From IMG/VR virus record IMGVR_UViG_3300031857_015401, positions 28,871 to 92,870 of that record: a stretch of 64,000 nucleotides of DNA, one strand, 5' to 3'. Made by a program: the position numbers and the translations under genes. Positions 13,952 through 54,232 of the stretch are shown piece by piece. The first letter of the stretch is position 1, and every line of letters begins with the position of its first letter. Under the pieces are notes generated by a model, which did not search any database, was not told the origin of the DNA, and saw only the letters and a list, made by a program, of their open reading frames with translations. The DNA is from a virus.

Positions 13952-13953
13952 AA

Positions 13954-15039: not shown

Positions 15040-15044
15040 AATAA

Positions 15045-29522: not shown

Positions 29523-29527
29523 AATTT

Positions 29528-30055
29528 ATGATTATTGGTAATGATGTCGTTATTGATGATTTTGCAACTTTTAAAAGACCCGAATTAGTTGAAATTGGTA
29601 ATCATGTATCGATAGATCATGGATTTTATTGCACAACTTCTTTAAATATTGGTGATTATGTGCACATATCACCCTATGTTACTTGTATTGGTGGGTCTCA
29701 AGGTGTTTTTATAGCAAAAGGTTTTAATAATATAATGTCGGGTGCTAGAATTATATGTAGTTCAGATAGATTTGATGATAGCGGACTTTTTGGTGCAATG
29801 ATCCCTAAAAAATATAAAGGTAAACAAATAACAAAACCAGTAATTATGGAAGAATTTTCAAATATTGGTACTAATTCTATTGTTTTACCCGGATCAATAC
29901 TTAGAAAAGGTGTATTATTAGCTGCCGGTAGTTTGTTAATTGGGGATACAGAAGAATGGGGGGTATATAAAGGTAATCCCGCAAAATTAGTTAAAAAAAT
30001 AGATGGGTCAAAAATCATAAATCAATCATTGAACTTAGGGTATAAAAATATTTAA
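29528..30055 (+). CDS. Hexapeptide-repeat (left-handed beta-helix) O/N-acyltransferase
   Basis: IGNDVVID, IGNHVSID, IGDYVHIS, IGTNSIVLPG, YKGNPAK. Confidence 0.85.
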   Translation: MIIGNDVVIDDFATFKRPELVEIGNHVSIDHGFYCTTSLNIGDYVHISPYVTCIGGSQGVFIAKGFNNIMSGARIICSSDRFDDSGLFGAMIPKKYKGKQITKPVIMEEFSNIGTNSIVLPGSILRKGVLLAAGSLLIGDTEEWGVYKGNPAKLVKKIDGSKIINQSLNLGYKNI

Positions 30056-30056
30056 T

Positions 30057-31779: not shown

Positions 31780-31782
31780 AAA

Positions 31783-32433
31783 ATGAATAGAACAGAAATT
31801 ATAAATCATATAATATCAAAATATAATTTTGATACATATTTGGAAATCGGAGTAAGTGACGTTAATTTAAACTTTAACCACATAAAAATAAAAAATAAAA
31901 TTGGGGTTGACCCAAACCCTGATGTTTGGGGAATTGACTACAATATGACTTCTGACGATTTTTTTAAAATTAATAAACAAAAATTTGATATTATTTTCAT
32001 TGATGGTATGCATGAGTTTCATTTTGTTTATAGAGACATAATAAACTCATTAGATATACTAAACGAAAATGGGGTTATCGTTTTACACGATTGTAATCCC
32101 GAAAATGAAGTTATTCAAATGGTGCCGGAAACAAAAGATGGTATTTGGACCAATCAAGAGTGGGTTGATTTTGCAGAAAATTGGAGAAAATTATCTGTTG
32201 ATGGTAATTGGAGTGGTGATTGTTGGAAAGCCATTGTTAAATTTAGATCACTTCATAATAATTTTAAAACTTTTGTTATTGATACTGATTTTGGTGTGGG
32301 AATAATAACCAAATCTACTAAATCAGTAGAACCATTAATATTAAATGAAGAATTAACATATAAAAATTTAGAAAAAAATAGAAAAGAATGGTTAAATCTT
32401 TTTTCTATTGATGATTTCATAAATAATATATAA
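31783..32433 (+). CDS. Class I SAM methyltransferase (Methyltransf_24-like)
   Basis: YLEIGV, GVDP, FDIIFIDGMH, GVIVLHDCNP. Confidence 0.85.
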   Translation: MNRTEIINHIISKYNFDTYLEIGVSDVNLNFNHIKIKNKIGVDPNPDVWGIDYNMTSDDFFKINKQKFDIIFIDGMHEFHFVYRDIINSLDILNENGVIVLHDCNPENEVIQMVPETKDGIWTNQEWVDFAENWRKLSVDGNWSGDCWKAIVKFRSLHNNFKTFVIDTDFGVGIITKSTKSVEPLILNEELTYKNLEKNRKEWLNLFSIDDFINNI

Positions 32434-32441
32434 TTTTTATT

Positions 32442-33167
32442 ATGACAAAATATAAATACAATAGTTATGTATTAGGTAAAGTTCCTGAAAACTTACAAAG
32501 ACCGGACATTTATAAACTAAAAGAGTCTGGTTATGACTTTAATGATGCCAGAGAAATTATAGATATTTTTGAAGAAAAAATTGCAAAATTTGCTGGATGT
32601 AAATTTGCAGTTTTGACTGATTGTTGCTCACACGGACTATTTCTTTGTTTAAAATATATACAAAGAAAAAAAGAAATAGATGTTGATCAAAAAATTACTA
32701 TACCTAATAGGACGTATATATCTGCACCAATGCAAATTATACATTCAGGTTATAAAGTAAATTTTGAAGATATTGAATGGTCGGGGTTATATCAATTAAA
32801 ACCAACAAGAATTTATGATAGTGCAGTAAGATGGACAAAAAATATGTACGTCGGTAATAATGCGTTACAGGTTATTTCTTTTCAATTTAAAAAAAGAATC
32901 CCAATAGGAAAAGGAGGGGTTATATTAACCGATGATGAAGAAGCCGCCAAAATGTTAAAACTTATGAGTTACGATGGAAGGGATTTAACTGTACCATATG
33001 ATGATGAAAACCATATAAAAACAATGGGATATCATATGTATATGACACCCGAAGATGCAGCTAGAGGAATACTTTTAATGGATCAAACACCTGAAATAAA
33101 TGAAGACGCTTGTAATCATACAAATTATATGGATGTTGAACAAATGTTAAAAAATATATCTTTATGA
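32442..33167 (+). CDS. Second short DegT/DnrJ-family PLP-dependent enzyme (241 aa)
   Basis: FEEKIAKFAG, YDSA, SFQFKKRIPIGKGGVILTDD; clear paralog of 28222-28887. Confidence 0.8.
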   Translation: MTKYKYNSYVLGKVPENLQRPDIYKLKESGYDFNDAREIIDIFEEKIAKFAGCKFAVLTDCCSHGLFLCLKYIQRKKEIDVDQKITIPNRTYISAPMQIIHSGYKVNFEDIEWSGLYQLKPTRIYDSAVRWTKNMYVGNNALQVISFQFKKRIPIGKGGVILTDDEEAAKMLKLMSYDGRDLTVPYDDENHIKTMGYHMYMTPEDAARGILLMDQTPEINEDACNHTNYMDVEQMLKNISL

Positions 33168-34117
33168 AGACAAAAATATTATTATTAGGTGGATATGGTT
33201 TTTTAGGTTCAAATATACACAACGAATTTATTAATGACCAAAATTATGAAATTTTTTGTGAAAGTAGAAGAACAGATTGTGATATGTTAAATTATGAAAA
33301 ATTATATCAAAAAATAAAAACAATTATGCCAAATATAATAATTTATTGTTCGGCTAATGTTGGTTCTGTTAACTATGTTACAAATTATGCCGCGGATGTT
33401 ATAGATAATAATTTAAATATGTGTTTAAATTTATACAAATCGGTTAAAAATATTAATAAAGATATTTTAATTATTAATCCATTGGCTAATTGTTCATATC
33501 CTGGTAATATAGATATACAACACGAATCTATGTGGTGGGATGGAAAAATACACGAGTCAGTTGAGTCATTTGGTATGTTTAAAAAAACGTCATTTATTAT
33601 TTCAGAATGTTACAAAAAACAGTATGGGATAAAAACTATTAATATTATGTTAGGTGGTGGATATGGTGAAGGTGATCATACCGACGAAGAAAAGACGCAC
33701 GCAATGAATGGAATAATTCTAAGAATGATAAAATCCAAAAAAAACAATGAAAATAAGTTTGTTGTTTGGGGTACAGGATCACCAATTAGGGAATGGGTTT
33801 ATATGTCAGACGTTGCTAAAATAATAAAAGAAGTTATTGACAAAAATATGTATAACATTCCTAATCCTTTAAACATTGGTCAAAATAATGGAATTTCTAT
33901 TTTGGATATAGTTAATATAGTTAAAGAAGAATTAAATTATAATGGAAAAATTATTTTTGATACCACTAAGCAGGATGGTGCACCAAAAAAAGTTTTGGGG
34001 TCCACATTGTTTGATCAGTTTTTCCCAAACTTTAAATTTACAAACCATAATGATGGTATAAAAAAAACAATTAAATATTATTTAGAAAAATATGAAAGTA
34101 ATAGTATCGACTTGTGA
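33164..34117 (+). CDS. GDP-L-fucose synthase (Fcl/WcaG)-like SDR with an altered catalytic triad
   Basis: GGYGFLG, AxVG, NCSYP, VVWGTGSPIREW, DGAPKK; YxxxK is replaced by FGMFK. Confidence 0.8.
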   Translation: MKTKILLLGGYGFLGSNIHNEFINDQNYEIFCESRRTDCDMLNYEKLYQKIKTIMPNIIIYCSANVGSVNYVTNYAADVIDNNLNMCLNLYKSVKNINKDILIINPLANCSYPGNIDIQHESMWWDGKIHESVESFGMFKKTSFIISECYKKQYGIKTINIMLGGGYGEGDHTDEEKTHAMNGIILRMIKSKKNNENKFVVWGTGSPIREWVYMSDVAKIIKEVIDKNMYNIPNPLNIGQNNGISILDIVNIVKEELNYNGKIIFDTTKQDGAPKKVLGSTLFDQFFPNFKFTNHNDGIKKTIKYYLEKYESNSIDL

Positions 34118-34817
34118 TAAATACATAAATTGTGTTGAAGCGTTAAAATATACATTTGATAAAAATGGGGGGTCTGATTTTGATGTTACAATACTAGGGT
34201 TTAAAGAACCAAATTTTGATTATGGAAATTGGAAATTTTTTTCTATGGGTACTGATGTTGGTCCACAAAATTTGAGTAACGATTTATGGACTTTTTTTAA
34301 AGATTTTGATGATGAAATTTTTCTTTGGTTAAATGATGACATAGTTTTAGTTGATGGTATAGATATTGAATTGTTAAATGAAATGAAAGATATGATACTA
34401 AATAACAAATCAATTGGAAGGATAACTGCAACATCGGCAACTAAAAATCATTATGGAAATTATCCTGTCTATGAAGTTAAAGATGGTTATGAGTACCGTG
34501 AAGTACCACAAAACGCAGAATATAGACTATCTTTAAATTCAAGTATATGGAGAACATCTTATTTTAAAAAATATTGTCAGCAAGGTGCTGGTAATTGGGT
34601 ATGGGAAACAAGAAGCGATGCTTTAAATGATGGATATACAATTTTAGGGACTATTGGTAGATACGCAATTGATTTTGGTCATCTATTTAGATTTGGTAAT
34701 TTACATCTTTCACATAATTGGTATATGTCCGAATACACAAATAAAACTTTATCTGTAGAAGATAAAAATAAAGTTGAAAATATAATAAACAATAATTATA
34801 ATTTATTAAAAAAATGA
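34092..34817 (+). CDS. Putative GT-A fold glycosyltransferase
   Basis: VIVSTCDKY, LWLNDD, YRLSLNSSIW, WVWE; glycan-locus context. Confidence 0.55.
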   Translation: MKVIVSTCDKYINCVEALKYTFDKNGGSDFDVTILGFKEPNFDYGNWKFFSMGTDVGPQNLSNDLWTFFKDFDDEIFLWLNDDIVLVDGIDIELLNEMKDMILNNKSIGRITATSATKNHYGNYPVYEVKDGYEYREVPQNAEYRLSLNSSIWRTSYFKKYCQQGAGNWVWETRSDALNDGYTILGTIGRYAIDFGHLFRFGNLHLSHNWYMSEYTNKTLSVEDKNKVENIINNNYNLLKK

Positions 34818-35749
34818 AAGTATTAATAACAGGAGGAGCCGGTTATTTAGGATCAACTTTATCTGAGTTGTTATTAGATAATGGGTATGAAGTAACAGTT
34901 TTGGATAATTTAATGTACAATCAGTTATCCATTTTACATTTATTTAAAAAAGAAAATTTTAAATTTATAAATGGGGATGTTAGAGATAAAAGTCTATTAA
35001 AGTCACTTGTTAATTTAAACGATGTTTTAATACCTTTAGCCGCTATTGTAGGTATGCCAGCTTGTAAATCAAACGAGCAATTAGCAATAGATGTTAATTT
35101 TGAACAAATTAAAACAATTGTTGAGTTTATGGGGGAAAGCCAAAAAATTATACTCCCAAACACCAACTCACAATACGGGTCGTCTGATAAAATTATTACC
35201 GAAGAGTCACCATTTAATCCATTATCATTATATGCCAAAACTAAATGTGATGCAGAAGATATGATGTTAACAAAAGGTAATGGTATTTCTTTAAGATTAG
35301 CAACTGTTTTTGGCGTTTCACCAAGAATGAGAACCGATCTTTTGGTTAATGATTTTGTTTATAAAAGTTTGGTGGATGGTTATTTAGTTTTATTTGAATC
35401 TCATTTTAAAAGAAATTATATACACGTACAGGATATTGCTAGGACTTTTCTTTTTATGATTAAAAACTACGATGATTGTAAGGGACAAGCATTTAATGTT
35501 GGTTTATCTACAGCAAATTTAAGTAAATTAGAATTAGCAAATAAAATTAAAGAATATTTACCTTCTTTAGTAATTAAAGAAGATAATTTTAAAGAAGATT
35601 TTGATAAAAGAAATTATATAGTTTCTAATCAAAAATTAGAATCTAAAGGATGGAAACCACTGTATGATTTGGATTACGGTATAAATCAACTAATCCAAGC
35701 ATATTCAGTAGTAATAAATAAAAATAACTCAAATTTTACAAATTTATGA
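34814..35749 (+). CDS. NAD-dependent NDP-sugar epimerase/dehydratase (extended SDR)
   Basis: ITGGAGYLG, GDVRD, LAAIVG, YAKTK, LRLATVFG, RNYIHVQD. Confidence 0.9.
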   Translation: MKVLITGGAGYLGSTLSELLLDNGYEVTVLDNLMYNQLSILHLFKKENFKFINGDVRDKSLLKSLVNLNDVLIPLAAIVGMPACKSNEQLAIDVNFEQIKTIVEFMGESQKIILPNTNSQYGSSDKIITEESPFNPLSLYAKTKCDAEDMMLTKGNGISLRLATVFGVSPRMRTDLLVNDFVYKSLVDGYLVLFESHFKRNYIHVQDIARTFLFMIKNYDDCKGQAFNVGLSTANLSKLELANKIKEYLPSLVIKEDNFKEDFDKRNYIVSNQKLESKGWKPLYDLDYGINQLIQAYSVVINKNNSNFTNL

Positions 35750-36147
35750 CAAGAAAATATTTACCAACATTAAGCGAATTAATTGATAGACTTTCAATTG
35801 TACAATTAAAGGAAGTCTTTATTTCCGAACATAAATCTGAGTATGCACAAGAAATAAAAGATATTGTTCATGACATTCAACAACACATTAATGAAAATAA
35901 ATCTGAAATCACCGCAGAAACAATTAGAGCTATCGTTGTTTTAAGTCAAATGAATCTACATATTTGGCATAACGAATCCAATTACCGCAAAGGAATTAAA
36001 GACGGGAATAATTTAGAATTGACACACGGTATAAATGGAATTCGTAACACGGCAAAAAATAAAATCCAAGAGGTTGTTGGTGGTCGTAAAGATTATAAAA
36101 TTGATTGTTTAGCCGCTGAATTTAAAGATTGGGAAATTAGTTGGTAA
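35746..36147 (+). CDS. Hypothetical helical protein (DUF6165-like) of glycan loci
   Basis: SELIDRLSIVQLK...N..IW..E...R...N..R...KN.I pattern. Confidence 0.55.
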   Translation: MTRKYLPTLSELIDRLSIVQLKEVFISEHKSEYAQEIKDIVHDIQQHINENKSEITAETIRAIVVLSQMNLHIWHNESNYRKGIKDGNNLELTHGINGIRNTAKNKIQEVVGGRKDYKIDCLAAEFKDWEISW

Positions 36148-36148
36148 T

Positions 36149-36907
36149 ATGAAAATACTTGTAATTGGGGATTCCTGTCAAGACGTTTTTATATATGGTA
36201 AATGTGAAAGGTTATGTCCTGACGCACCTGTACCCGTTTTAATACCATATAAAACTAAAACAATGGGTGGTATGGCATTAAATGTTTATGAAAATCTAAA
36301 ATCTTTAGGTGTTAACGTTGATATTGTCACTAACAAAAAAAAGATATTAAAAACAAGATATATAGATGAAGTTTCTAATCAGTTAATTTTAAGGGTAGAC
36401 TCTGAAAAAAATGGATATGATCGGATACAAAATATTGAATTAATAAATTTTAATCTGTATGACGCGGTCATAATATCTGACTACGATAAAGGATTTTTAT
36501 CTTATGATGATATTAAGTACATATGTAATAATCATAGCTATGTTTTTATAGACACTAAAAAAATAATTGATTCTAATTTTATTAATTGTAAATTTATTAA
36601 AATAAACGAACACGAATATAAAAATAATTTAAATCAAAGTAATTTTTTAAATAAAATTGAAAATAAATTAATTATTACTTTAGGTAGTAAGGGATCAATG
36701 CATAATAAAAAAATATATCCAGTAGAAAAAGTTGAAATTAAAGATATGGTGGGTGCCGGAGATACTTTTATTTCAGTATTTACATATAAGTTTATTTTAA
36801 CTAATAATATAGTAGAGTCAATTAGATTTGCTAATGAGTGTGCAACAATTATAGTACAACACAAAGGAGTAAATAAAATTGGTGATTTTATAAAAATAAG
36901 TAAATGA
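36149..36907 (+). CDS. PfkB-family heptose-7-phosphate kinase (RfaE domain I / HldA-like)
   Basis: LVIGD...D...G..ERLCPDAPVPV, ISDYDKG, ITLGSKG, DMVGAGDTF. Confidence 0.85.
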   Translation: MKILVIGDSCQDVFIYGKCERLCPDAPVPVLIPYKTKTMGGMALNVYENLKSLGVNVDIVTNKKKILKTRYIDEVSNQLILRVDSEKNGYDRIQNIELINFNLYDAVIISDYDKGFLSYDDIKYICNNHSYVFIDTKKIIDSNFINCKFIKINEHEYKNNLNQSNFLNKIENKLIITLGSKGSMHNKKIYPVEKVEIKDMVGAGDTFISVFTYKFILTNNIVESIRFANECATIIVQHKGVNKIGDFIKISK

Positions 36908-37638
36908 CAAGAAAAAAACAACCAAACCAAAACGAAGAGTCAGAATTAAAACCATTTTCAAGAAAAGATTTTATTAATTCAGTAATTAAAAAAAAAGTTA
37001 AAAACAAATTTTTAACACAAAGTCAAGAAGAATACTACAATCTTTTAAAAAACAATCAAATAACTATTTGTTCAGGACCGGCAGGGGTTGGTAAATCGTA
37101 TATAGCAATGAAGGCGGCTGTCGATTTATTAATGGACCCAAATAACTCATATGAAAAACTTGTTATTGTTAGACCAGCAGTTGAGGCCGAAGAAAAACTT
37201 GGTTCACTACCAGGAAATTTAGAAGAAAAATTAGACCCTTATATTTTCCCATCATACTATCTATTAAATAAAATTATAGGTAAAGAGGCTCGTGAAAAAT
37301 TAAAAGATGCCGAAATTATTGAAGTATTTGCTTTAGCATACATGAGAGGAATGAATATAGATAATACAATTTTAATATTTGAAGAGTCACAAAACTCAAG
37401 CCCTAATCAAATGAAATTACTATTGACAAGGATAGGTTTCAATAGTAAATTTTTCATATCGGGAGATATTGAACAAACTGATCGATATAAAGATAAAAAA
37501 CATTCAGGACTTTATGATGCAATTCATAAATTTAAAAATGTTTCCGACATTGGTGTTTTTGAATTTAGTGATGAAGACGTTGTTAGAAACCCGCTAATAA
37601 GTAAGATATTAAAAAAGTATGAAGAGAATAGGGATTGA
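36904..37638 (+). CDS. phoH: PhoH-family ATPase
   Basis: GPAGVGKS, RPAVEAEEKLGSLPG, YMRG, LLTRIG, GDIEQTD, DVVRNPL. Confidence 0.93.
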   Translation: MTRKKQPNQNEESELKPFSRKDFINSVIKKKVKNKFLTQSQEEYYNLLKNNQITICSGPAGVGKSYIAMKAAVDLLMDPNNSYEKLVIVRPAVEAEEKLGSLPGNLEEKLDPYIFPSYYLLNKIIGKEAREKLKDAEIIEVFALAYMRGMNIDNTILIFEESQNSSPNQMKLLLTRIGFNSKFFISGDIEQTDRYKDKKHSGLYDAIHKFKNVSDIGVFEFSDEDVVRNPLISKILKKYEENRD

Positions 37639-38269
37639 AATTAACGGAGTTCTTAGAGATACTATTGGTAAATTTACGCAATTATATGAAAAACATATGA
37701 TTGATGAAGATGAACACGATGGTAAAACTTTTGAATTAGATATTTCTGGTAATACGGAAGAGTTAGTATCTAAGGAAGAATTTGAATATAAAATTTTAAG
37801 TGATGTCACTTCATTAAATTTGATGAATCATTTTAGATTTAATGGTGAAGAAGAATTATACTCATTTATGTATGAAGATTTTGCTATGCAAATTTTTGGT
37901 CATGCGGGATCAACAGAAACTTTTACTTTTAACGATTTAAATGATTTATATATAAAATATAGAGACAAAAACGAATTACTAATAGTTTCAGACGAAATGG
38001 GTAAATCTAAACCAGCATCATTATTTTTCCTTTCTAAGTTTGGTTGCCAATTAGAGAAAGTAAAATTTTATTCAAATTCAACAAAAAAATCAATGTGGGA
38101 TGAAATTGATGTTTTACTTACTGCGAATCCTGACTTAATATTAGAAAAACCAAAAGATAAAATTGTCGTTAAATATAACACAATTTATAATAAAAATATC
38201 GACTGTGAATATGAAATAACTACATTGAAGGAGTTCGACGAAATTTTACAAAAATTTAACATATGCTGA
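37619..38269 (+). CDS. HAD/5'-nucleotidase-like protein with a degenerate catalytic motif
   Basis: RIGIEINGVLRD aligns with the IGIDIDGVL motif of 5'(3')-nucleotidases but lacks both Asp residues. Confidence 0.55.
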   Translation: MKRIGIEINGVLRDTIGKFTQLYEKHMIDEDEHDGKTFELDISGNTEELVSKEEFEYKILSDVTSLNLMNHFRFNGEEELYSFMYEDFAMQIFGHAGSTETFTFNDLNDLYIKYRDKNELLIVSDEMGKSKPASLFFLSKFGCQLEKVKFYSNSTKKSMWDEIDVLLTANPDLILEKPKDKIVVKYNTIYNKNIDCEYEITTLKEFDEILQKFNIC

Positions 38270-38553
38270 CATTTTTAGGTGAAAATTACTACTTAGATAT
38301 TGACGAGTTAGAAAAACAAGTTAGTTATGAAAAATCAGTTTTACCTGTAACATATAGTGGTGAAACTGAAATGCCTGAACAACAAATTAGTGTTACTAGA
38401 TTTGAAACTTTTAAAGGATTGATTGATGTGATACTAACAGAAAGAGAAGATTTAGATGAAGGTTTAGGTGCTCACGCAGGTAAAGACCTATCAATACCAT
38501 TTAAAATTGCATTTAATACGCTTTTAATAAACAATATACTTAAAACACTCTAA
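38263..38553 (+). CDS. Hypothetical phage protein
   Basis: 96 aa ORF coupled to neighbours; C-terminal FKIAFNTLL. Confidence 0.6.
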   Translation: MLTFLGENYYLDIDELEKQVSYEKSVLPVTYSGETEMPEQQISVTRFETFKGLIDVILTEREDLDEGLGAHAGKDLSIPFKIAFNTLLINNILKTL

Positions 38554-38558
38554 TAAAA

Positions 38559-39623
38559 ATGGATTTAGAAAAAATTGAAAAACTAGAACAGTCTATTAGA
38601 AACTTAGAAAATAAATCTGTTAGAATTTATTTTTTAGTTCAAGACACAAAAGGAAACCCAAAGGCATCTATAAAATATATTTATGATGTTGCATTAACCT
38701 TAAAAAACAATGGGTTTAATCCTATTATCATACATGAAACAAAAGAATATACTGGAGTTTCTGAGTGGATAGATGATAGGTATAATGAATTACCTCATCA
38801 AACAATTGACGGTCAAAATTTGGCAATTTCACCTGAAGATTTTATTGTCATTCCTGAAATTTATGGTCATGTCATGGATCAATTAAAAAATTTCCCTTGT
38901 GGTAAAATTGTTTTATGTCAGGCATATGACCACATGTTAGAAACATTACCACCTGGAGTATCTTGGTCACAATATGGGTTTTTAAAGGTTATTACAACTA
39001 ATGAAAATCAAAAGAAGTATGTTTCAGATATTATGAGAGGAGTTACTTTTGATGTAATTGAACCAAAATTAGATGATGTTTTTTCTAAAAAAGAAAAACC
39101 GTCTAAACCTATTATCGCAATTCATACTCGTGAGCAAAGAGACACTGCAAAAATTATCAAAAGTTTTTATTTAAAATACCCTCAATATAGATGGATCACA
39201 TTTAGAGATATGAGAGGAATTAAACAAGATGACTTTGCTAAATTTTTAAAAGAATCTTATGTATCAATATGGGTTGATTTAGAATCTGGTTTTGGTACAT
39301 ACCCTTTAGAGTCGATGTCTTGTGGAACTCCGGTTATTGGTAAAGTACCATCACTAAAACCAGGATGGATGAATGACTCTAATGGTATTTGGACTTACGA
39401 ATTTAATGATATAATTGACATCATTGCTAATTTTACTCAAAATTGGTTAGAAGATAATATTTCAGAATCTCTTTATGAAAACATGAAATTAACTTCAAAT
39501 AGATACTCAACTGATAGTCAATTCACGTCATCGGTTATTGAAACATTTGAAGATTATATTGAAACAAGAAAAACATCATTTAACGAACAGTTAGAAAAAA
39601 TAAAAGAAACAACAGAAAATTAA
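38559..39623 (+). CDS. GT-B fold glycosyltransferase
   Basis: DFIVIPE, SGFGTYPLESMSCGTPVIG (GT4-like C-terminal motif). Confidence 0.75.
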   Translation: MDLEKIEKLEQSIRNLENKSVRIYFLVQDTKGNPKASIKYIYDVALTLKNNGFNPIIIHETKEYTGVSEWIDDRYNELPHQTIDGQNLAISPEDFIVIPEIYGHVMDQLKNFPCGKIVLCQAYDHMLETLPPGVSWSQYGFLKVITTNENQKKYVSDIMRGVTFDVIEPKLDDVFSKKEKPSKPIIAIHTREQRDTAKIIKSFYLKYPQYRWITFRDMRGIKQDDFAKFLKESYVSIWVDLESGFGTYPLESMSCGTPVIGKVPSLKPGWMNDSNGIWTYEFNDIIDIIANFTQNWLEDNISESLYENMKLTSNRYSTDSQFTSSVIETFEDYIETRKTSFNEQLEKIKETTEN

Positions 39624-39628
39624 TAATT

Positions 39629-40441
39629 ATGGAAGAAAAAAATATATTCGATGTATCGGTTATTTTACCAATTGATTCATCAAAACATTTAGACTTTAGT
39701 GAACTTTTAGAAAGATCTATTAAATCTTTAAAAAACCAAACAGTTGGTATTAATGAGTTAGTAATTGTTCATACAAGTGAAGAAACTTTAAAATTGGCTT
39801 TAAGTAGTTTTGATTTTAGTGGTTTAACGGTTAATTTAGTTGAAAACACAGGTTCTAAAGATTTTGCAACTCAAGTTAGTTTAGGTGTAAAAAACGCAAA
39901 AAGTAAATGGATATCAATTTTAGAGTTTGACGATGAGTATTCATCTATTTGGTTTAAAAATGTTAAAAGATTTGCAGAAGCATATTCAGATGTTGAGGCA
40001 TTTTTACCTTTAGTTGTTGATACTGATGAAAAAGGAGTATTTGCTGGATTTACAAATGAAGCAAGTTTTGCGGTTAGTTTAAATAGTGAGATAGGGGTAT
40101 TAACTAATGATGTTCTATTAAATTACCAAAATTTTCAATCTAGTGGAATGGTAATTAAAAAATCAACATTTGAAAGTAATGGTGGTTTAAAACCATCAAT
40201 AAAATTAACATTTGTGTATGAATACCTTTTAAGATTAACGTATAACTCAGTTAAAATTATGACAATCCCAAGAATTGGTTATAAACACACAAATATGAGA
40301 GAAGGGTCTATATTTTGGAATTATAAATATGGAGATCAAAGAATGACTGATAATGAAGTTTCTTTCTGGTTGGAAACTGCGAAAAAAGAACACTTTTTCA
40401 CAGCTGATAGGGACATAAAATATGAGCCCCAAACTGTTTAA
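39629..40441 (+). CDS. GT2-family glycosyltransferase
   Basis: VSVILP, SIKSLKNQT, GVKNAKSKWISILEFDD. Confidence 0.8.
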   Translation: MEEKNIFDVSVILPIDSSKHLDFSELLERSIKSLKNQTVGINELVIVHTSEETLKLALSSFDFSGLTVNLVENTGSKDFATQVSLGVKNAKSKWISILEFDDEYSSIWFKNVKRFAEAYSDVEAFLPLVVDTDEKGVFAGFTNEASFAVSLNSEIGVLTNDVLLNYQNFQSSGMVIKKSTFESNGGLKPSIKLTFVYEYLLRLTYNSVKIMTIPRIGYKHTNMREGSIFWNYKYGDQRMTDNEVSFWLETAKKEHFFTADRDIKYEPQTV

Positions 40442-46918: not shown

Positions 46919-47380
46919 ATGAACATACAAAGTATTATTAGAAAAGTTTTAAGAGAAGAAGAAAATAAAAGGTCTTCAAGATACATGTTTTTTTCTAACC
47001 TACAACAAATGAGAAGACAATGTGATTTACTTCTTGATTTAGATGAAGAAATGGTTGAGGATATATTAGATAATGGTCATGATTGGGCTCAAGACCATAT
47101 CGCGGAAGCAAAAAATAATATGGATCAAGTTTTTGATTTTATTATGAATGAATCCAAAAAAGATGGTATGGAATTATCTATGTCTATAGATGATAAAGAT
47201 ATGGTTGAAGAAGGTCGTAAAAAAACTGGGACTAAATTATGTGCTAGAGGTAAATCAGCGGCAAAGGCAAAATTTGACGTGTATCCATCGGCTTATGCTA
47301 ACGGATATGCCGTACAAGTTTGTAAAGGAAAAATTAAAGGATTAGACGGTAAAAAACATTGTTCAGGTTCTTTTTGTTAA
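46919..47380 (+). CDS. Protein with C-terminal KFDVYPSAYAN (DUF5872-like) module
   Basis: GKSAAKAKFDVYPSAYANGYAVQVCKG; N-terminal IIRKVLREE; DWAQDHI motif. Confidence 0.65.
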   Translation: MNIQSIIRKVLREEENKRSSRYMFFSNLQQMRRQCDLLLDLDEEMVEDILDNGHDWAQDHIAEAKNNMDQVFDFIMNESKKDGMELSMSIDDKDMVEEGRKKTGTKLCARGKSAAKAKFDVYPSAYANGYAVQVCKGKIKGLDGKKHCSGSFC

Positions 47381-48087
47381 AGGGAACTCAAAATATTTCT
47401 AACAATAATATCTAAAGACTCTTTTTGAGTCTTTTTTGGTTTATATGATGTCATTACAGGTTTTTGTCCTTTACCCGATTGTGTATCTTTTTTTTCTGCA
47501 TTTCTTTTTTGTTGACAAGCAGATCTTTTTTCGCTATCGGACATTTTACCGGCAACACCGGCTGCTCGACATTTAGGGTACCCACCTTTATCAGTATCTT
47601 GTCTTCCACAAGGAGGATGTTTCCCATCAACTTTTCTACATATATTTACCCAAGGACCTTTTGGTTGTTTTGACCCTTTTGGTTTTTTCTTTGTCCCAAA
47701 CCAAACCGCTAAATCTTCATTTAATGGTATTTTATCTAACTCAACCCATTCACCAACTATTGGAACTATTTTTTTACCTTTACCTGGTGTAGGATTTATT
47801 GGTCCACCTTCTTCATCACTAAGTTGTTTATGTGTTTTGTTATATTTACTAATTCTTCTTGATTTTGCTTCTAATTTTTTTCTATCTTTTTTGTGTGAAT
47901 CTAAACTACCGTCATAACTATCGTATTCTAATTCAGAATTAAAATATTTAGAAACTTTATTTGTAAAAGGACCCATGACACTATCATCCCAATCTACTTC
48001 ACCCATAGTTAATGGTCCGTTATAGTTACCTGAGTACCTTGAGCTAGTGGTTTCATTTAAAACCTTTTTGATTATTTTTTCAATCAT
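47377..48087 (-). CDS. Basic protein with EDLxxWF / CGR / YPKC module
   Basis: NEDLAVWF...GPWVNIC...HPPCGR...YPKCRAA...MSDSEKRSA...KR; N-terminal IIKKVLNE. Confidence 0.65.
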   Translation of the reverse strand: MIEKIIKKVLNETTSSRYSGNYNGPLTMGEVDWDDSVMGPFTNKVSKYFNSELEYDSYDGSLDSHKKDRKKLEAKSRRISKYNKTHKQLSDEEGGPINPTPGKGKKIVPIVGEWVELDKIPLNEDLAVWFGTKKKPKGSKQPKGPWVNICRKVDGKHPPCGRQDTDKGGYPKCRAAGVAGKMSDSEKRSACQQKRNAEKKDTQSGKGQKPVMTSYKPKKTQKESLDIIVRNILSSL

Positions 48088-48101
48088 ATACTATAAATAT
48101 A

Positions 48102-48560
48102 TTAATGTTTTAAATAATACGAATAAAACATTACGTGCATATGATAAAATACTAAAGTAATTATTCCCCAAGTTTCCATCCAAAAAAATCCACCAAAAAA
48201 TAAAAAGAAAATGGAAAATAAATATATTGGTAAATAAAATCTAAATTTTTTAATAGACCATAAAGGGATTAACGATATTATAAAAAAAGATATTGCAAAT
48301 ATATTGTGTAATACCATCCAATCTTGTACTGAAAATACAGTTAATAAAAGTAACAACACCGCAGGTATTCTCCATTTAGGTAGATCAAATAAAAAATAAC
48401 TAACAAGTGCATTTGAAAAAATAAATAAAGGTTGTAGGGGTGTTTCCCATGATTGTGATATTGATTGTAATTCCCCAAAACTAAAATAAATTATAAAAGG
48501 TTGTAATACTGCCAAAACAGAAGTAAACAACCTTTTTATAATTTCAAATTTACTTATCAT
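48102..48560 (-). CDS. Polytopic membrane protein (about 5-6 TM, DUF998/Frag1-like)
   Basis: Very hydrophobic; SISQSW and LHNIFAISFF motifs; start overlaps the stop of the upstream secreted protein. Confidence 0.6.
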   Translation of the reverse strand: MISKFEIIKRLFTSVLAVLQPFIIYFSFGELQSISQSWETPLQPLFIFSNALVSYFLFDLPKWRIPAVLLLLLTVFSVQDWMVLHNIFAISFFIISLIPLWSIKKFRFYLPIYLFSIFFLFFGGFFWMETWGIITLVFYHMHVMFYSYYLKH

Positions 48561-50578
48561 CTAATAGTTTTTCTCATAGTACCGTCTTCATATACTTCAA
48601 AAACAACTCCTTTATATGTTTCATTAACTTCTTGACCTGCAAGATTTATATATTTGACAATTTTTTTACTTGAGAAAAACCCTTCTATTGATATTGGTCC
48701 GTATATTTTATACTGACCATCAATATCATACTGTAATAATCTATAATAAACAGTATTATTTTGATTATAGTAGTCAAGATAAGTGTAGTTAATTAATGAT
48801 TGACTATTACCAGCCGAAGGTCTACTACCAATGATTCTCCAATCTTCACCATTTTCACTTCTTTCAATATCAAAATGAGATGAATTTTGTTCTGATGCGG
48901 TTGCCCATTTTAAATTATTAAATGAAGGATATCTAACACCTTCAAAATATATTAGTTCTACTGGTAATGACACAGGATTTGAAAGTCTGACTGTGTATTC
49001 TTCTATTTCACCATAACCATATCCTGTTGAATAATATGCGTCGTTTGATGGTGTCACTCCCCAAGCTGATAAAACTCTCATTAAAAAGTCACCTGTTGCA
49101 GCATCTGATGGTATTGTAATTAATTGTGATGTTGAATTTGCTGGTGCTTTTTGTAAAACATTTTCAGTTGTTTGAAAAGTACCATCACCATTATAGTCAA
49201 TCCATGCGGCATATCCTTGACCTGACTGAAAAGTATTTGTTGCGGTAACACTTAATTGATACGGTTCTCCTTTTGTTAATTCAATAACTTGAGAAGTAAA
49301 ATCTTGATAAGCATCTCCATCGTTTGTGGACGTGTTATTAATATTACCAAATGTTACATTTGATATATAATCTCCATCATCGATTCCTGTTGAATATGTT
49401 GATGCATTTCTTAAATTTACACTAACAACATTACTTAAACCTGAAGGACAATTACCATTTTTAGATGTTGTTCTAAACCAAATTTGTGTTTGTTGTACAT
49501 TCATTCTAATACTATATGGGTTTGCAGGATTACTTGTTGACCCCGCAACTGTTGTAAAGTTGTTAAAAGACCACTCTATCAATGTAATGCTTCCTTCGTT
49601 ACCGCTTGTTGTTAATGTTGTTGCATCATTAACAGTAGTATTTGATTTTGACGAAGTAATTGTTCCACCATTTGTTGGTGTTGTACAAACTGTAACTGAT
49701 GTTATATTAGCCGCAAACCCACCCCAAGTACCGACATTAGAAATATCAGTTGTCCATCTAATTGTAAGTTGTCCTGAAGCATTTTCTGCAGTTACATTAG
49801 GCGGTATTGTTGTACCATTAAGTGTTGCAAGTAATGTTGATGAGGTATTTGGACCATCGTAAATGTATAGATAATCATAATTTGTTTCTAAATCCATTTG
49901 AGTGAATTGTAGTTGTAATTTTTTTGTATTATCAGATGGTGTTAATGTTATTGTTCTATCAACACTATTTGTATAACCACCAGCAGCAGGACCTACAGGA
50001 CCAACGTCGTCTGTTAATGTATATGTAAATGTTGAATTTAATGTTTGTGAACAAGCCCCAATCATAGGTATTAATGTGTTTTCACTTGAAACTGTTGATG
50101 TAATCCCTAAATCATCTACATATCTTTCGTGTGTACCTGATCCTCTAGCGTCAATTAACCTAATATAAACATTTGTTAAACTTAATGCTCCAATGTTTAA
50201 TGTGTATTGTTGATATGTTGCAGTAACTGATGTAATAGAACCTCTAGTTGTCCAAGTTGTTCCATCTGGTGACGTTTGTATGTTTAATGTCCAAGCAGTT
50301 GTGTTTGAACTTCTTCTATACCAAAATGTTAATACCCCAGGATTTGCAATTAATGGTGTTCTAATCGCATCATTAACACCATTAAATGTCAACATATTAG
50401 TCCCTGTTCTTACAGGTGTTGTACCATAAGGAACTGAAGTGTTTGTCCACGTACCTTTTTGTGTTGGTAGTGCGGAACTAAAACTTTCATAAAGAAAGTA
50501 TTGATTACATTGTGAAAATAAAATAGACGTTGTGATTGTACTAACCACAAAAAAGATTAAAATAAATAATTTTTTCAT
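48557..50578 (-). CDS. Secreted multidomain adhesin-like protein: signal peptide, CUB-like, GEVED, LPVEL Ig-like domain and T9SS-type C-terminus
   Basis: MKKLFILIFF...LFS|Q; LETNYDYLYIYDG (CUB); YISNVTFG...WIDYNGDGTF...GEIEEY (GEVED); LPVELIYF...WATASEQNSSHFDIERS...YYRLLQYDIDG; tail INLAGQEV...YEDGTMRK. Confidence 0.82.
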   Translation of the reverse strand: MKKLFILIFFVVSTITTSILFSQCNQYFLYESFSSALPTQKGTWTNTSVPYGTTPVRTGTNMLTFNGVNDAIRTPLIANPGVLTFWYRRSSNTTAWTLNIQTSPDGTTWTTRGSITSVTATYQQYTLNIGALSLTNVYIRLIDARGSGTHERYVDDLGITSTVSSENTLIPMIGACSQTLNSTFTYTLTDDVGPVGPAAGGYTNSVDRTITLTPSDNTKKLQLQFTQMDLETNYDYLYIYDGPNTSSTLLATLNGTTIPPNVTAENASGQLTIRWTTDISNVGTWGGFAANITSVTVCTTPTNGGTITSSKSNTTVNDATTLTTSGNEGSITLIEWSFNNFTTVAGSTSNPANPYSIRMNVQQTQIWFRTTSKNGNCPSGLSNVVSVNLRNASTYSTGIDDGDYISNVTFGNINNTSTNDGDAYQDFTSQVIELTKGEPYQLSVTATNTFQSGQGYAAWIDYNGDGTFQTTENVLQKAPANSTSQLITIPSDAATGDFLMRVLSAWGVTPSNDAYYSTGYGYGEIEEYTVRLSNPVSLPVELIYFEGVRYPSFNNLKWATASEQNSSHFDIERSENGEDWRIIGSRPSAGNSQSLINYTYLDYYNQNNTVYYRLLQYDIDGQYKIYGPISIEGFFSSKKIVKYINLAGQEVNETYKGVVFEVYEDGTMRKTIR

Positions 50579-50589
50579 TATAGTATTTT

Positions 50590-50634
50590 TAAAAAAATAA
50601 AAGATTCCCCTATAATAAATATAAGGAAATCTTT
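50590..50634 (-). terminator. 14-bp hairpin plus U tract between the S8 protease and CUB/GEVED genes
   Basis: On the minus-strand RNA aaagauuuccuuau pairs fully (two G-U) with auaggggaaucuuu, followed by uauuuuuuu. Confidence 0.55.
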
Positions 50635-50792
50635 ATTTGGTCAACCTATTTGATGTGTAAATTATTATTTATTGGGGAATCGTTTATATTTACACTGTGT
50701 GGGTGATTATTTTTATTACCATCATAACGGAAAATGTTATACTGGTGACTAATGTTGTTAAAATTATGTTAAATAATTTATTTTTCATTATA

Positions 50793-52223
50793 TTAGTTTT
50801 TATAAATTCTTTTTACAATTATGTTGTTGTCAACTATAAAATACATTCCAGGAAGAGCGTTATCTAAATTTGTTGTTTTACCATTTACATCAATCACAAC
50901 GATATTACCAAAACCTTCAGACAACTCTTTTTGTCCTTTATCCCATCCGTAGTGATTTCCGTTTCCTCCTTGATTTCCACCACCTTGACCAGGGTTAGAA
51001 GAGTCAACTCCGTCCTCATCATTTCCGTGACCATTATTACCGTCATTATTAGATAAGTCAATTAAGTTTTGAACCATTCTTAACGCTTCACCTGAGTTTA
51101 ATCTACCTGATCCTATTTTACCAATATAATTAGGGTTTAATGAGTCAATATTAACTGCGCTTACTCTTAAAATTGAATCTATTTCGTAATTTGTTAAATC
51201 AGGTTTTAGTGATAACATTAAAGCCACAGTTCCTGTAACAAATGGTGCTGCAAATGATGTACCATTTGAATATGTGTACCATTCCGGTGCTGGTGTAACA
51301 GGTACGTTATAACCAGGAGCACAAATATCAACAGATGAATTTGTTTGGTGTCTTGTTGATGGATTACCGATAGTTCTTTCTATATTATCTTGACTACCTA
51401 CACTTGTTACCGCAAATACGTTATTGTAAGCCGCTGGGTAAACTAATGCGTTAGGATTACCACATGTACTTCCGTTTCCTGCTGCAGCAACGATAAATGT
51501 TCCGTTGTTATAGATCTCATCAATTGCTTGTTGTGCATAGATATTATAGTTACATCCTGATGACCAAGATAAGTTAATAACTTTTGCCCCGCCGTATGAT
51601 GCCATTAACATGTCGTTATAATTCATTCTAAATAGGTTAAGTGTTGTATTATAACCTATAGAAGAGATACCAATATAGTTATTTGTGTTTCCTGCAACTA
51701 TTGTTGCCACGGCCGTACCATGTGTTCTTGTTGCTGTGTTTGTGTTGTCATAATAATTAATTTTACCGTTTAGTTCTTCGTGGGTGTTATAGTAATTTTG
51801 GTCAGAAATAGCCACGTTTAGATTGGGATTTCCCGTTGTGTATGACCATGCTGTTTGAGCATTTATTAAATCTAATGCCCAATTATTAGAAAATGTTGTA
51901 TTGTAGTCGTTTGGTAATTCTAATGTTTCATATGTTGGTGCGTATTCAATACCTTTTAAACCGTTTACTTTATGTAATGAAGTATACAAATCAACAACAT
52001 CACAATCACATGTAAATTCATATACATTTTGTAGAGACTCTTGTCTTGAAGATGGAAAGGCTTTTCTATATTGTAAATCAGTTTTTACTGTGGTGGGTAA
52101 TGTTTGTAATTCTAATTTATTAACATCTTCTACTGTTACCCATACACTTCCTTTTTGTGCGAAAGACACTACAGTTAATAAACTAATTAGTAAAGTTGAG
52201 ATTGTTGTTTTTAAGTTCTTCAT
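50793..52223 (-). CDS. Secreted S8 (subtilisin-like) serine protease with a short T9SS-like C-terminus
   Basis: Signal peptide ...VSFA|Q; propeptide; triad VAISD, HGTAVA, GTSFAAP; oxyanion AAAGN; tail VIDVNGK...LPGMYFI...KRIYKN. Confidence 0.88.
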   Translation of the reverse strand: MKNLKTTISTLLISLLTVVSFAQKGSVWVTVEDVNKLELQTLPTTVKTDLQYRKAFPSSRQESLQNVYEFTCDCDVVDLYTSLHKVNGLKGIEYAPTYETLELPNDYNTTFSNNWALDLINAQTAWSYTTGNPNLNVAISDQNYYNTHEELNGKINYYDNTNTATRTHGTAVATIVAGNTNNYIGISSIGYNTTLNLFRMNYNDMLMASYGGAKVINLSWSSGCNYNIYAQQAIDEIYNNGTFIVAAAGNGSTCGNPNALVYPAAYNNVFAVTSVGSQDNIERTIGNPSTRHQTNSSVDICAPGYNVPVTPAPEWYTYSNGTSFAAPFVTGTVALMLSLKPDLTNYEIDSILRVSAVNIDSLNPNYIGKIGSGRLNSGEALRMVQNLIDLSNNDGNNGHGNDEDGVDSSNPGQGGGNQGGNGNHYGWDKGQKELSEGFGNIVVIDVNGKTTNLDNALPGMYFIVDNNIIVKRIYKN

Positions 52224-52391
52224 TTCTATTGGTTTAATTTGTAATTTATTATTTTCTACACCAATAGATATGTGAAAGGCCCCGTAAAAGACCTGTTTTT
52301 GATACCCTAAAAAGGTTACTTTACAACTATAACCCTATAAACATCTAAGTAATTTTACCCATATATTTAGTAGTTATTACTTGAATTATAT

Positions 52392-52425
52392 AAAAACAAA
52401 AAAGGTCAGATTTCTCTGACCTTTT
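52392..52425 (-). terminator. Intrinsic terminator of the major capsid gene
   Basis: Perfect stem aaaaggtcaga / tctgacctttt with a 4-nt loop, 20 nt past the MCP stop; T tract on the minus strand. Confidence 0.8.
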
Positions 52426-52444
52426 CCTTATGTTAAGATATTGA

Positions 52445-54232
52445 TTATCTCAATTCTCTCAAGTCGAATGTTCTAACACCATCAACTACGATTCTACCAT
52501 AGAAACGGTTGTTAACCATTTTCTTAGCGTATCTCGTCATTATACCTTTAATAGGTGTAAAGTTGAATGGGTTATACATTGTAGGTGTTAATTGTAGAGG
52601 TACATATGGAGCGTAAACGTATCCTGTATCTAACAATGAAGAACCTTTGTGTCCTAATAAGATTGTGTTAGGTGGGAAGTAAGGATCTCTATACACTTGG
52701 TATCTTCCTGATAATGTACCAACTCTTTCAATACCCATGTTGTATTGATCTTGCTCAGGTGAAGCGTTAGATACGTGGAAGTACTCAAGGTCATCAAAGA
52801 TAGCTGAAATCTCAGAAGAAACAACAATCCAATTGGCACCACCTCTAAGTGTAGACTTGTGGATTTGTGCAGAAACTTGGTTAATTGCGGTAATCAAAGT
52901 TTGATTCCAATCTTTTTGTGTGTATTGAGTTAATGGATTTGCTGCTGTTCCTCTTTTCCATCCATTGTAATCCCATCTTAAAGTCCATGCAGCTCCTTTT
53001 CTAAGGTCTCTCAAGATTTCTCTATCAATTTCAGCAGCTACTTGTTCAGACAATAAAGCCGTTAATTCAGCTTCAGCATCGATGTTATGGAATGCAGAAA
53101 CGTCTTGTGCCAATTCAGGAGACCATTGTGCTCTTAGTTTTCTTTCTGTAACAGATACAGTAACTGACTCAAGGTCAAAAGAAACTTCACCAATTTTATC
53201 TTCAAATTCTAATTCTTGATATACTCTATAAGTTGCGGTGAATTCTGTGTTAACACCTGCATCACCAGCAATAGTAGTAGTTAAACCTGAATAACCATCT
53301 AATGAAGTTGCTCCTATTGAACAAGGTACTTGTAAATCTACTTCTAAGTAAATTTTACCGTCAGCAGAACAAATATTATCATAAGAACCACCGTTTCCAT
53401 CAGTACCAAAAGTTGTTGAAGTTTGTGTACCATATTGAACAATTCCTTTACCGTATTTTTGAGTTACTACTCTAAATAATAGGTTAGAACCAGAAACTCC
53501 TGAAAAAGCAGCGCCCGCACCACTATTAGCAGTCACTGTTAAATCAGAAAGGAATGATTCGTTATCCATTTCTTGACCATCAGGACCAATTAATTTACCT
53601 GCTCCTGCGTTAGAGAATCCTGACATAACAAGTAATACTTTTCTATATTCACCAGCAGTATACCCTGAAGGAATTAATTCACCATTTGACCACACAACTG
53701 TAGTAACAGAAGCGGTAAGTGCTGAATATCTACCTTTTGAATAATCAAAAAGACCTGCGGGATCTAAACCAGGCTCATTTCCTTCATAAAATCTGTCATA
53801 AAGGTTTTTTCCTGAATTATAAGCCGCTTGAGAAGCTGCTTGAGTTGGTCCTCCATCTGCACCAATAGGTGAAAAATGTTCATTACCAGTATTATAACCT
53901 TGAATTTTAGGTACAAAGTAGAACAATTTACCGATTGGTAAGTTCATTGCTTGTACTGATACTAAATCGTTAGCTAATAATTTAGAGAATACTCTTCTAA
54001 CGATAGGGAATACAACTGTTTCAAAAGAACCTGAACTATCAGTTGATGCCGCTTCATTAATTAGGTGAGACGCTTGGTTTTCATATAATTGTGCCATGTT
54101 CTCTTTAACGTGTCCTCTTAGACCGTCTAGGAATCCTAATCTATCCCATTTGTTGATTGTATCTTCTTTGATAACTTTAAGGTGTTTTAACCCAATGTTA
54201 CCAACAAGACCTGATTCTAATAATGCTCCCAT
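52445..54232 (-). CDS. Major capsid protein (T4 gp23-like)
   Basis: FPIVRRVF...VSVQAMNLP.G, RKLRAQWSPELAQDV.AFH.IDAEAEL, AAEIDREI, GYVYAPYVPL, GIMTRYA. Confidence 0.97.
   Translation of the reverse strand: MGALLESGLVGNIGLKHLKVIKEDTINKWDRLGFLDGLRGHVKENMAQLYENQASHLINEAASTDSSGSFETVVFPIVRRVFSKLLANDLVSVQAMNLPIGKLFYFVPKIQGYNTGNEHFSPIGADGGPTQAASQAAYNSGKNLYDRFYEGNEPGLDPAGLFDYSKGRYSALTASVTTVVWSNGELIPSGYTAGEYRKVLLVMSGFSNAGAGKLIGPDGQEMDNESFLSDLTVTANSGAGAAFSGVSGSNLLFRVVTQKYGKGIVQYGTQTSTTFGTDGNGGSYDNICSADGKIYLEVDLQVPCSIGATSLDGYSGLTTTIAGDAGVNTEFTATYRVYQELEFEDKIGEVSFDLESVTVSVTERKLRAQWSPELAQDVSAFHNIDAEAELTALLSEQVAAEIDREILRDLRKGAAWTLRWDYNGWKRGTAANPLTQYTQKDWNQTLITAINQVSAQIHKSTLRGGANWIVVSSEISAIFDDLEYFHVSNASPEQDQYNMGIERVGTLSGRYQVYRDPYFPPNTILLGHKGSSLLDTGYVYAPYVPLQLTPTMYNPFNFTPIKGIMTRYAKKMVNNRFYGRIVVDGVRTFDLRELR

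Follow-up and report, generated by a model that had tools for sequence, protein, structure and literature searches.

We analysed a 64,000-nucleotide stretch of viral DNA, positions 28,871 to 92,870 of IMG/VR record IMGVR_UViG_3300031857_015401 (below, the window), which carries at 48102-52223 a cassette of three minus-strand genes for a subtilisin-family protease, a CUB/GEVED/LPVEL protein and a small membrane protein. The cassette is accessory, moron-like and host-derived, and sits in a hypervariable slot behind the capsid gene of a T4-like phage. Both large proteins have predicted Sec signal peptides and end in tails of ~38-40 residues. Profile comparisons indicate homology of the protease tail to that part of the type A C-terminal domain (CTD; the signal for secretion by the type IX system, T9SS) which bears its motifs, and homology of the two phage tails to each other. 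We give slightly better than even chances to the reading that the cassette proteins would be exported through the host T9SS, with the short tails as signals.

The original prediction for this region, made from the letters alone, described three co-oriented genes behind the terminator of the capsid gene, and these are present: open reading frames (ORFs) for 476, 673 and 152 residues, in that order and all on the minus strand. A terminator-like hairpin at 52398-52427 (minus strand; 13-pair stem with 4 GC pairs and a T-rich tail) forms the upstream border, with the capsid stop on one side of it and the protease gene on the other; a second (50600-50634, minus strand; 15 pairs and a T run) separates the protease gene from the 673-residue gene. 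The protease gene thus has such hairpins on both sides; none follows the other two genes, and the start of the 152-residue gene overlaps the stop of the 673-residue gene by 4 nt. A sigma-70 promoter scan returned 31 sites against 36.8 in shuffled sequence and so no excess. Bacteroidota promoters differ from the sigma-70 consensus used for the scan.

Two predicted exports and their C-terminal tails

Both large proteins begin with a basic start and a hydrophobic stretch and have Gln as residue 23, preceded by FS in one and FA in the other, so that the two Sec signal peptides claimed earlier were both seen, as judged by eye and with a hydropathy script. The script flagged 8 of the 103 ATG-initiated ORFs of at least 70 residues across the 92.9-kb record, and by our reading of the eight only the 476- and 673-residue proteins show the basic start, hydrophobic stretch and Gln. 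A Sec signal peptide, as expected of T9SS cargo, is by the same judgement present in both. The Gln after the signal peptidase I (SPI) site had been taken as a hallmark of T9SS substrates; it is instead described as a general rule for Bacteroidota SPI substrates (Bochtler 2018), and the rule has been noted in phages of Porphyromonas gingivalis (Matrishin 2023).

The protease gene (50793-52223, minus strand) encodes an intact subtilisin, as had been proposed. Its product matches Pfam Peptidase_S8 (E 1.9e-31; 109.9 bits, cut-off 21.8) and PHROG 3677 'protease' (E 5.4e-41), and D141, H168 and S323, which from their motifs we take to be the catalytic triad, are invariant across 20 aligned homologues, as is Q23. 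The predicted signal peptide is at one end of the protein and the short C-terminal tail at the other, the latter preceded by a conserved Gly/Asn-rich linker. Between catalytic domain and tail (window 50931-51050, residues ~392-431) lies the Gly/Asn-rich motif DGNNGHGND.DG.D..NPG, found invariant in 20/20 aligned homologues, short- and long-tailed alike, and matched by a small PHROG with no assigned function; it may be a processing or metal site.

The last ~38 residues of the protease (50796-50909, minus strand; ..VVIDVNGK..PGMYFIV..VKRIYKN) stand where metagenome homologues with 52-56% identity end in Pfam Por_Secre_tail. In the alignment, the phage tail pairs with the '..D..G..V' strand and the 'GxY....K' end of Por_Secre_tail, and homologues with either tail length all keep G459 and Y461, the two fixed residues of GxY. 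When a profile of 81 short protease tails was compared with one of 57 bacterial canonical CTDs, hhalign returned a probability of 95.7% (E 1e-8, 38 columns), against a maximum of 4.7% for 20 column-shuffled control profiles. On long CTDs, the stretches to which the tail aligns are the region of strand 3 and, past a deletion of the middle, the final two strands; what it lacks is the N-terminal half and a 16-column middle piece of the canonical domain. In the nomenclature of Ye 2025, where motif B is a conserved Gly, D is GxY and E is a basic residue, it retains B as DVNGK, D as PGMYF and E as KRIYK. These alignments indicate that the protease is descended from a host family of T9SS-secreted subtilisins and keeps, of the CTD, only the part with motifs B, D and E.

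Relatives of the protease are found in the presumed host family, which we surveyed in 151 genomes of the family holding the best-matching metagenome-assembled genome (MAG). Orthologues occur in 41/151 genomes, with identity up to 62%; they are longer (open frames about 450-1570 residues), and 7/7 complete ones inspected end in canonical-looking tails of the form yPNP...GxY...K. The compact, short-tailed protease was seen only on phage-type contigs.

The 673-residue protein (48557-50578, minus strand) is a putative exported multidomain protein, in which the predicted signal peptide is followed by an N-terminal region without assignment, CUB, GEVED, an FN3-like LPVEL domain and a short tail. The CUB-GEVED-LPVEL architecture proposed earlier was borne out, with CUB (PF00431, residues 217-282; E 2.1e-07, 31.7 bits, cut-off 21.4) and GEVED (PF20009, residues 456-530; E 1.8e-14, 54.7 bits, cut-off 24.4) above their Pfam cut-offs and LPVEL modelled as an FN3-type sandwich. 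By eye, an export signal is present in 27/27 homologues with an intact N-terminus. PHROGs gave no match for this protein or for the 152-residue protein.

An AlphaFold2 model of the 140-residue C-terminal module (predicted local distance difference test, pLDDT, about 88-90) shows a seven-strand FN3 sandwich, the LPVEL domain (48680-48979, minus strand), and then three short strands in the tail, the last ~40 residues (KKIVKYINLAGQEVNETYKGVVFEVYEDGTMRKTIR; 48560-48679, minus strand). The LPVEL region superposes by VIA-align on 5z06_B (Z 11.0, root mean square deviation 2.4 over 89 residues), an FN3 fold. The predicted tail strands comprise module residues 107-111, 125-130 and 135-139, and in the linker before them pLDDT dips to 74 (residues 101-110). 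The original prediction had proposed examining whether the tails fold like known CTDs; the model of this second tail has three strands and is not a seven-strand Ig-like β-sandwich.

The last 139 residues recur at 55-89% identity in 120 listed metagenome proteins, out of 252 at E <= 0.001. Among proteins sharing the LPVEL module the N-terminal parts vary (CUB, GEVED, GBD_T9SS_assoc, fn3 and F5/8-type domains), and through these exchanges of N-terminal domains the tail and the FN3 domain stay conserved to the same degree. G115 and Q116 of the tail are invariant, and K105, G124, Y130, D132, G133 and K137 nearly so. Compared with the protease tails, the LPVEL-type tails match from end to end and give a probability of 89% in hhalign (E 2.3e-6, 35 columns; shuffles at most 4.3%), which argues that the two phage tails are homologous to each other.

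In bacteria the LPVEL domain was found in 78 loci of species-representative genomes, by record titles nearly all Bacteroidota, and its best matches are titled Crocinitomicaceae, Lishizhenia or Flavobacteriales. In 88 complete bacterial LPVEL proteins the stretch past the domain mostly measures 72-96 residues and matches Por_Secre_tail in 84 (E <= 0.01; at least 27 bits in 70), the four without a match being L118, L129, L140 and L141; LPVEL therefore normally sits in front of a T9SS tail. The profile of LPVEL plus short tail (A2) matched 144/151 host-family genomes, with 1312 matches in total. Of 150 listed matches, 128 extend at least as far as model position 134. Contigs that carry matches are in some cases as long as 4.6 Mb, and a stop codon follows within 5 residues of the tail in 10/10 loci and 20/20 further regions. 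The capsid protein matched 0/5 MAGs tested, so nothing points to this phage as the source of the matching MAG contigs. Since LPVEL plus tail occurs in nearly all of these genomes, the short tail of the 673-residue protein is a common module of the likely host family rather than a phage peculiarity or invention. The short-tail protein of MAG locus L118 was considered as a phage contaminant and dropped, its tail being explained by the host-wide module. The family has a T9SS, the SprA translocon exceeding its cut-off in 40/41 of its genomes.

Type IX export weighed against other fates of the tails

Short CTDs are established in Prevotella intermedia. For this species Ye 2025 (PMC11969387) describes 48 short (~40-55 residues) and 32 long CTDs, with five short-CTD cleavage sites measured and glycosylation seen. 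The prediction given there for the short CTD is a single sheet of three strands, which correspond to strands 3, 6 and 7 in the long form; motifs B, D and E, reported as the PorV-contacting part, are retained. The same paper cites the last 22 residues of Hbp35 as absolutely required for secretion and attachment of green fluorescent protein.

The phage tails resemble these short CTDs in several respects: they are ~38-40 residues long, stand behind a flexible linker on predicted Sec-exported proteins, and in the protease carry motifs B, D and E; the model of the second tail likewise has three strands. They differ in that the P. intermedia domains were found with hidden Markov models (HMMs) derived from T9SS cargo whereas curated models miss the phage tails, that cleavage and glycosylation were shown there whereas the phage tails are known from sequence and model, that motif D of the second phage tail is not GxY, and that the organisms here are freshwater Flavobacteriales and their phages. 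With the canonical type A CTD (PF18962/TIGR04183) the tails share the extreme C-terminal place behind a linker, the GxY and terminal basic motifs in the case of the protease, and the position at which bacterial protease orthologues and other LPVEL proteins carry a CTD. Unlike the canonical domain they are about half as long, fall below all model thresholds and, in the second tail, have three strands rather than seven.

If type IX export is correct, host Sec would export the protease and the 673-residue protein, and the T9SS shuttle and translocon of the host would then read both short tails, as they do the three-strand CTDs of P. intermedia. Late in infection the cell surface would then be altered by the protease and the lectin-like protein, once these had arrived there or in the medium, and in the inner membrane the phage-only membrane protein would act on the second cargo or together with it. 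A foreign CTD is reported not to be properly secreted by P. gingivalis (Mizgalska 2024), which would explain why a phage carries host-type tails. We infer surface remodelling as the purpose; receptor shaving, exclusion, release and adhesion are speculation as more specific roles.

Several results weigh against export by this route. Pfam and NCBIfam scans of the whole proteins and of their last 100-140 residues gave no match of either tail to PF18962, PF13585, TIGR04183 or TIGR04131, even at E <= 10. The HMM scans suggested with the original prediction therefore came out mixed, Peptidase_S8, CUB and GEVED matching and TIGR04183/Por_Secre_tail not; and of its claim of T9SS-like tails, the C-terminal position and, for the protease, homology to the CTD stand, while a match to a curated model does not. 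Compared directly with canonical CTDs by hhalign, 51 host and phage LPVEL-type tails reach 3.9% (shuffles 3.8%) and the 21 phage ones 2.8% only; the link of the second tail to the T9SS signal would thus be transitive, through the protease tail, and its motif D reads G-V/I-V/I in place of GxY. Modelled strands are available for the second tail only. Foldseek and VIA-align on the C-terminal module gave generic FN3 folds, by which the tail is barely tested; a profile search of the PDB with the same module gave only weak FN3 and CBM matches (E 0.11 and above). The compact short-tailed protease was not found in the 151 host-family genomes, where matches reach residue 469 at most, so that there is no host precedent for the exact protease tail. 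Short CTDs have been shown to be functional only in P. intermedia (Ye 2025, PMC11969387), and the host is assigned by similarity alone.

The lack of a CTD model match, the loss of the N-terminal half and middle of the domain from the protease, and the place of the genes in the late structural region behind the capsid gene would also fit tails that are decayed remnants, on proteins for which Sec is the sole exporter and which stay in the periplasm until lysis, then or later to act on, for example, envelope proteins or debris by which progeny phage would be trapped, without any role for the T9SS. We consider this unlikely. The tail is strongly conserved over many diverged proteins while their passenger domains change; the parts kept are exactly motifs B, D and E, the PorV-contacting part as given by Ye 2025 (PMC11969387); and a great many host proteins have the short module at their C-terminus (128 of the 150 listed profile matches).

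A different machinery could also read the tails, and here the third cassette gene matters. It encodes a predicted multi-pass membrane protein of 152 residues (48102-48560, minus strand), modelled by AlphaFold2 as a helical membrane bundle (pLDDT 92.6). Pfam, PHROG and NCBIfam gave no match for it; its 112 close homologues are all unnamed, and the family, one of the phage lineage, comprises 126 representative clusters. A lead to DUF7103 (PF23396) came from the Atlas (score 0.87-0.94). The protein itself does not match this family, which 22/39 distant relatives match at E <= 0.01 and 4/39 above the cut-off (at least 27 bits), so it is at best a distant relative of DUF7103. VIA-align of the model found a designed helical barrel as its best match (Z 8.7), which is uninformative for a helical bundle. 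The polar residues H85, N86, E129 and H140 are invariant or nearly so.

Wherever this gene was seen, it adjoins a short-tail gene. It is present in 12/30 viral loci with a short-tail gene, in 10 of them downstream on the same strand and abutting the end of the cargo gene, and in 2 upstream on the opposite strand. Because the genes are so tightly coupled, this arrangement suggests that the membrane protein acts on, or with, the short-tail cargo. The short tail might be a sorting or anchoring signal for a machinery other than the T9SS, perhaps a host system not yet described, and in the phage might dock on the membrane protein, which would keep the cargo at the inner membrane: the membrane gene is translationally coupled and always beside a short-tail gene, and the LPVEL-type tail is not significantly like canonical CTDs when the two are compared directly. 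We hold this to be rather less probable than decay of the tails. The second tail is linked to canonical CTDs by the two homologies given above (89% to the protease tail, and 95.7% from there), and it occupies the position at which 84/88 other LPVEL proteins have Por_Secre_tail. A profile of the membrane protein matched 0/151 host-family genomes, in a search with no positive-control genome; absent from these and from most short-tail loci, the membrane protein cannot be what keeps the tail conserved.

For the T9SS route proposed for these phage proteins, then, both look like exported host-type cargo, as claimed, and the tie to T9SS signals is by homology to a shortened form rather than by family membership.

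A variable slot behind the capsid gene

The cassette is flanked upstream by the gene for the major capsid protein (52445-54232, minus strand; Pfam Gp23 E 1.1e-72), which serves as a conserved anchor, and downstream by a conserved phage gene for 236 residues (47377-48087, minus strand) starting 14 nt past the membrane gene. With the C-terminal module as query, 30 viral loci were found, and all those that include a capsid gene are of a single lineage (capsid proteins 70-78% identical); in them the short-tail gene comes after the capsid gene, and 3/30 (L009, L010 and L012) also have the protease. An unbiased set was formed by 80 loci found through the capsid protein at 70-89% identity, out of more than 871 matches in the viral collection. 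In 49 of the 80 a homologue of the 236-residue gene stands after the capsid gene or after inserted genes. The gap between the two flanks in these 49 measures 70-5146 bp (<400 bp in 24) and holds a short-tail gene in 10; the remaining filled gaps contain unrelated genes, including a recurring ORF. A variable cargo slot next to the major capsid gene, for which the original prediction had suggested a survey of related phages, is thus observed: variable content between conserved flanks, as in an accessory, moron-like site.

The recurring ORF has 225-228 residues, ends in ...NLQP(M/L)W..ENIRKSNK and occupies the same slot in seven relatives (L044:7397-8077, L070:5936-6616, L094:8986-9672, L095:1997-2674, L099:3448-4134, L101:3940-4626 and L107:4099-4779). 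By this motif it looks like a homing-endonuclease-type mobile gene, which would fit a recombination hot spot.

One relative, the 229-kb contig L105 with a capsid protein 78% identical to that of the phage, carries five exported genes in a row behind the capsid gene (L105:9015-15809). Two encode canonical cargo, namely an S8 protease that also contains SprB repeats and ends in Por_Secre_tail (43.9 bits) and a 275-residue SprB-repeat protein with Por_Secre_tail (51.4 bits). The others encode SprB repeats only, LPVEL with the short tail, and an LPVEL protein cut by the end of the locus. Since long- and short-tailed cargo occur together on this contig, the slot accepts both.

The slot resembles phage morons and hypervariable sites (metagenomic islands) in that presence and content vary between conserved structural genes, that the genes are host-derived, and that terminator-like hairpins flank the protease gene. 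It differs in that its cargo is largely of one class, exported proteins with secretion-type tails, mixed with other insertions.

A gene directly behind the capsid gene, with Ig-like and lectin-like modules, a conserved C-terminus and a variable N-terminus, might also encode a Hoc-like decoration of the virion, whose C-terminal module would bind the capsid and display the N-terminal domains. For the 673-residue protein we regard this as very improbable, given the export signal in 27/27 homologues with an intact N-terminus, the many bacterial chromosomal proteins that end in the same C-terminal module, and the presence of the gene in only 10/49 relatives.

The close bacterial relatives of both large genes raise the question of whether the cassette is host DNA mis-assembled onto phage DNA, an outcome the original prediction had named as refuting it. 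This is improbable in the extreme. Independent viral contigs from other samples, L009 and L010 among them, show the same order of capsid, protease, short-tail, membrane and next phage gene, and the G+C content of the cassette (0.30-0.33) lies within that of the remainder of the window (0.26-0.35). Sequencing runs from elsewhere also contain the region: in 12, most of them metagenomes of lakes or other freshwater, half or more of the sampled words of this stretch of DNA were present, and four were compared in detail, the DNA runs X2, X9 and X12 from three studies and the RNA run X20. Contig pieces cover 30/30 bins in X2, 30/30 in X12 and 26/30 in X9. A 525-nt contig of X12 (47828-48352) runs from the 236-residue gene into the membrane gene, a contig of X9 (48511-48679) from the membrane gene into the 673-residue gene, and a 613-nt contig of X2 (51853-52457) from inside the protease gene over the terminator and 13 nt into the capsid gene. 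Both outer junctions are thus spanned in independent runs, which makes mis-assembly unlikely.

In X2 and X12 certain contigs connect ~47.7 kb directly with ~52.4 kb (47667-52443), skipping ~4.7 kb, and other joints skip 2.05 or 3.8 kb. They hint at co-occurring relatives with an empty or differently filled slot, and no more than hint, because the short sides of the joints have just 25-32 letters. In the RNA run, small contig pieces lie on the protease and capsid genes and none on the 673- and 152-residue genes; as evidence of transcription these pieces were rejected, since DNA carry-over is possible.

Phage, host and meaning

The window is the last 64 kb of the 92.9-kb record, for which CheckV estimates a completeness of ~30%. 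Genes for terminase, portal, prohead protease, an acidic protein of 492 residues and the Gp23-type capsid protein follow one another in that order on the minus strand; no family match was found for the acidic protein, which has the scaffold position. Among named phages, Flavobacterium phage vB_FspM_immuto has the capsid protein nearest to that of the window (39% identity). The phage belongs to an abundant freshwater T4-like lineage, and similarity makes a Crocinitomicaceae-type member of the Flavobacteriales the most likely host.

Elsewhere in the window, ~17 kb on the plus strand (23699-40441) is a run of phage sugar-nucleotide and polysaccharide genes: GT2/GT4 glycosyltransferases, a UDP-GlcNAc 2-epimerase and two partial DegT-type aminotransferase ORFs; GNAT and hexapeptide acyltransferases with FkbM- and other methyltransferases; and two NAD epimerase/dehydratases and a PfkB kinase, with PhoH within the run. 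Type A T9SS cargo is anchored through amino-sugar linkers, and a tie between this run and the cassette is for that reason conceivable. At 7311-8393 (plus strand) lies a gene for an Fe/Mn superoxide dismutase (Sod_Fe_N, Sod_Fe_C) with an N-terminal extension of ~150 residues without assignment. A Laminin_G_3 (concanavalin-like) protein and a collagen-repeat protein, two genes apart at 13229-16571 (minus strand), are probably fibre or receptor-binding parts.

Phage genes for T9SS cargo have been described from annotation. Bellas 2020 (PMC7468147) reports three variable T9SS type A cargo genes, by annotation, in the 76-kb 'Cryophage' and already proposes a hijack of the T9SS with superinfection exclusion, and de Jonge 2019 (PMC6949934) reports sorting-domain proteins beside head genes in gut phage contigs of cluster 2. 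Like the cassette, these are variable genes of Bacteroidota phages whose products are exported enzymes or binding proteins bearing T9SS sorting domains, and in the cluster 2 contigs they share the place beside head genes. They differ in having canonical sorting domains, in a 76-kb phage and crAss-related contigs, whereas we find a T4-like (Gp23) lineage with short tails, a defined slot and a coupled phage-only membrane gene. The original prediction knew of no characterised phage system of this kind, which is right for experimental work and has to be qualified by these annotation reports. Our literature search, supplements aside, turned up neither experiments on T9SS cargo of phages nor short CTDs reported outside P. 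intermedia, which Ye 2025 (PMC11969387) calls the sole reported species with both kinds of CTD. The concept of phage T9SS cargo and the short CTD as a signal class are therefore already in print; new are the finding of both together, the extension of short tails to freshwater Flavobacteriales, a slot with defined borders and a membrane gene coupled to the cargo.

A wider and more tentative reading, to which we give less than even chances, is that short CTDs are not peculiar to Prevotella but form a second class of T9SS signal, widespread among freshwater Flavobacteriales, which an abundant T4-like phage lineage exploits through the slot and the membrane add-on. The short CTDs of this class may usually be fused behind an LPVEL FN3 domain, and the phage may load host-compatible protease and lectin-like cargo. 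If the short tails do work, a minimal T9SS signal of one oral species would be common in environmental Bacteroidota and missed by curated models, so that cargo counts for these bacteria would be too low, and tails of ~40 residues would be usable as secretion tags. The slot offers a test bed in which a single site comes with numerous natural versions of the cargo, some accompanied by the coupled membrane gene and some not. If the cassette proteins do leave by the T9SS, a highly abundant phage lineage of lakes would during infection deliver enzymes of its own to the host surface, and would provide a tractable case for what phages gain by remodelling that surface.

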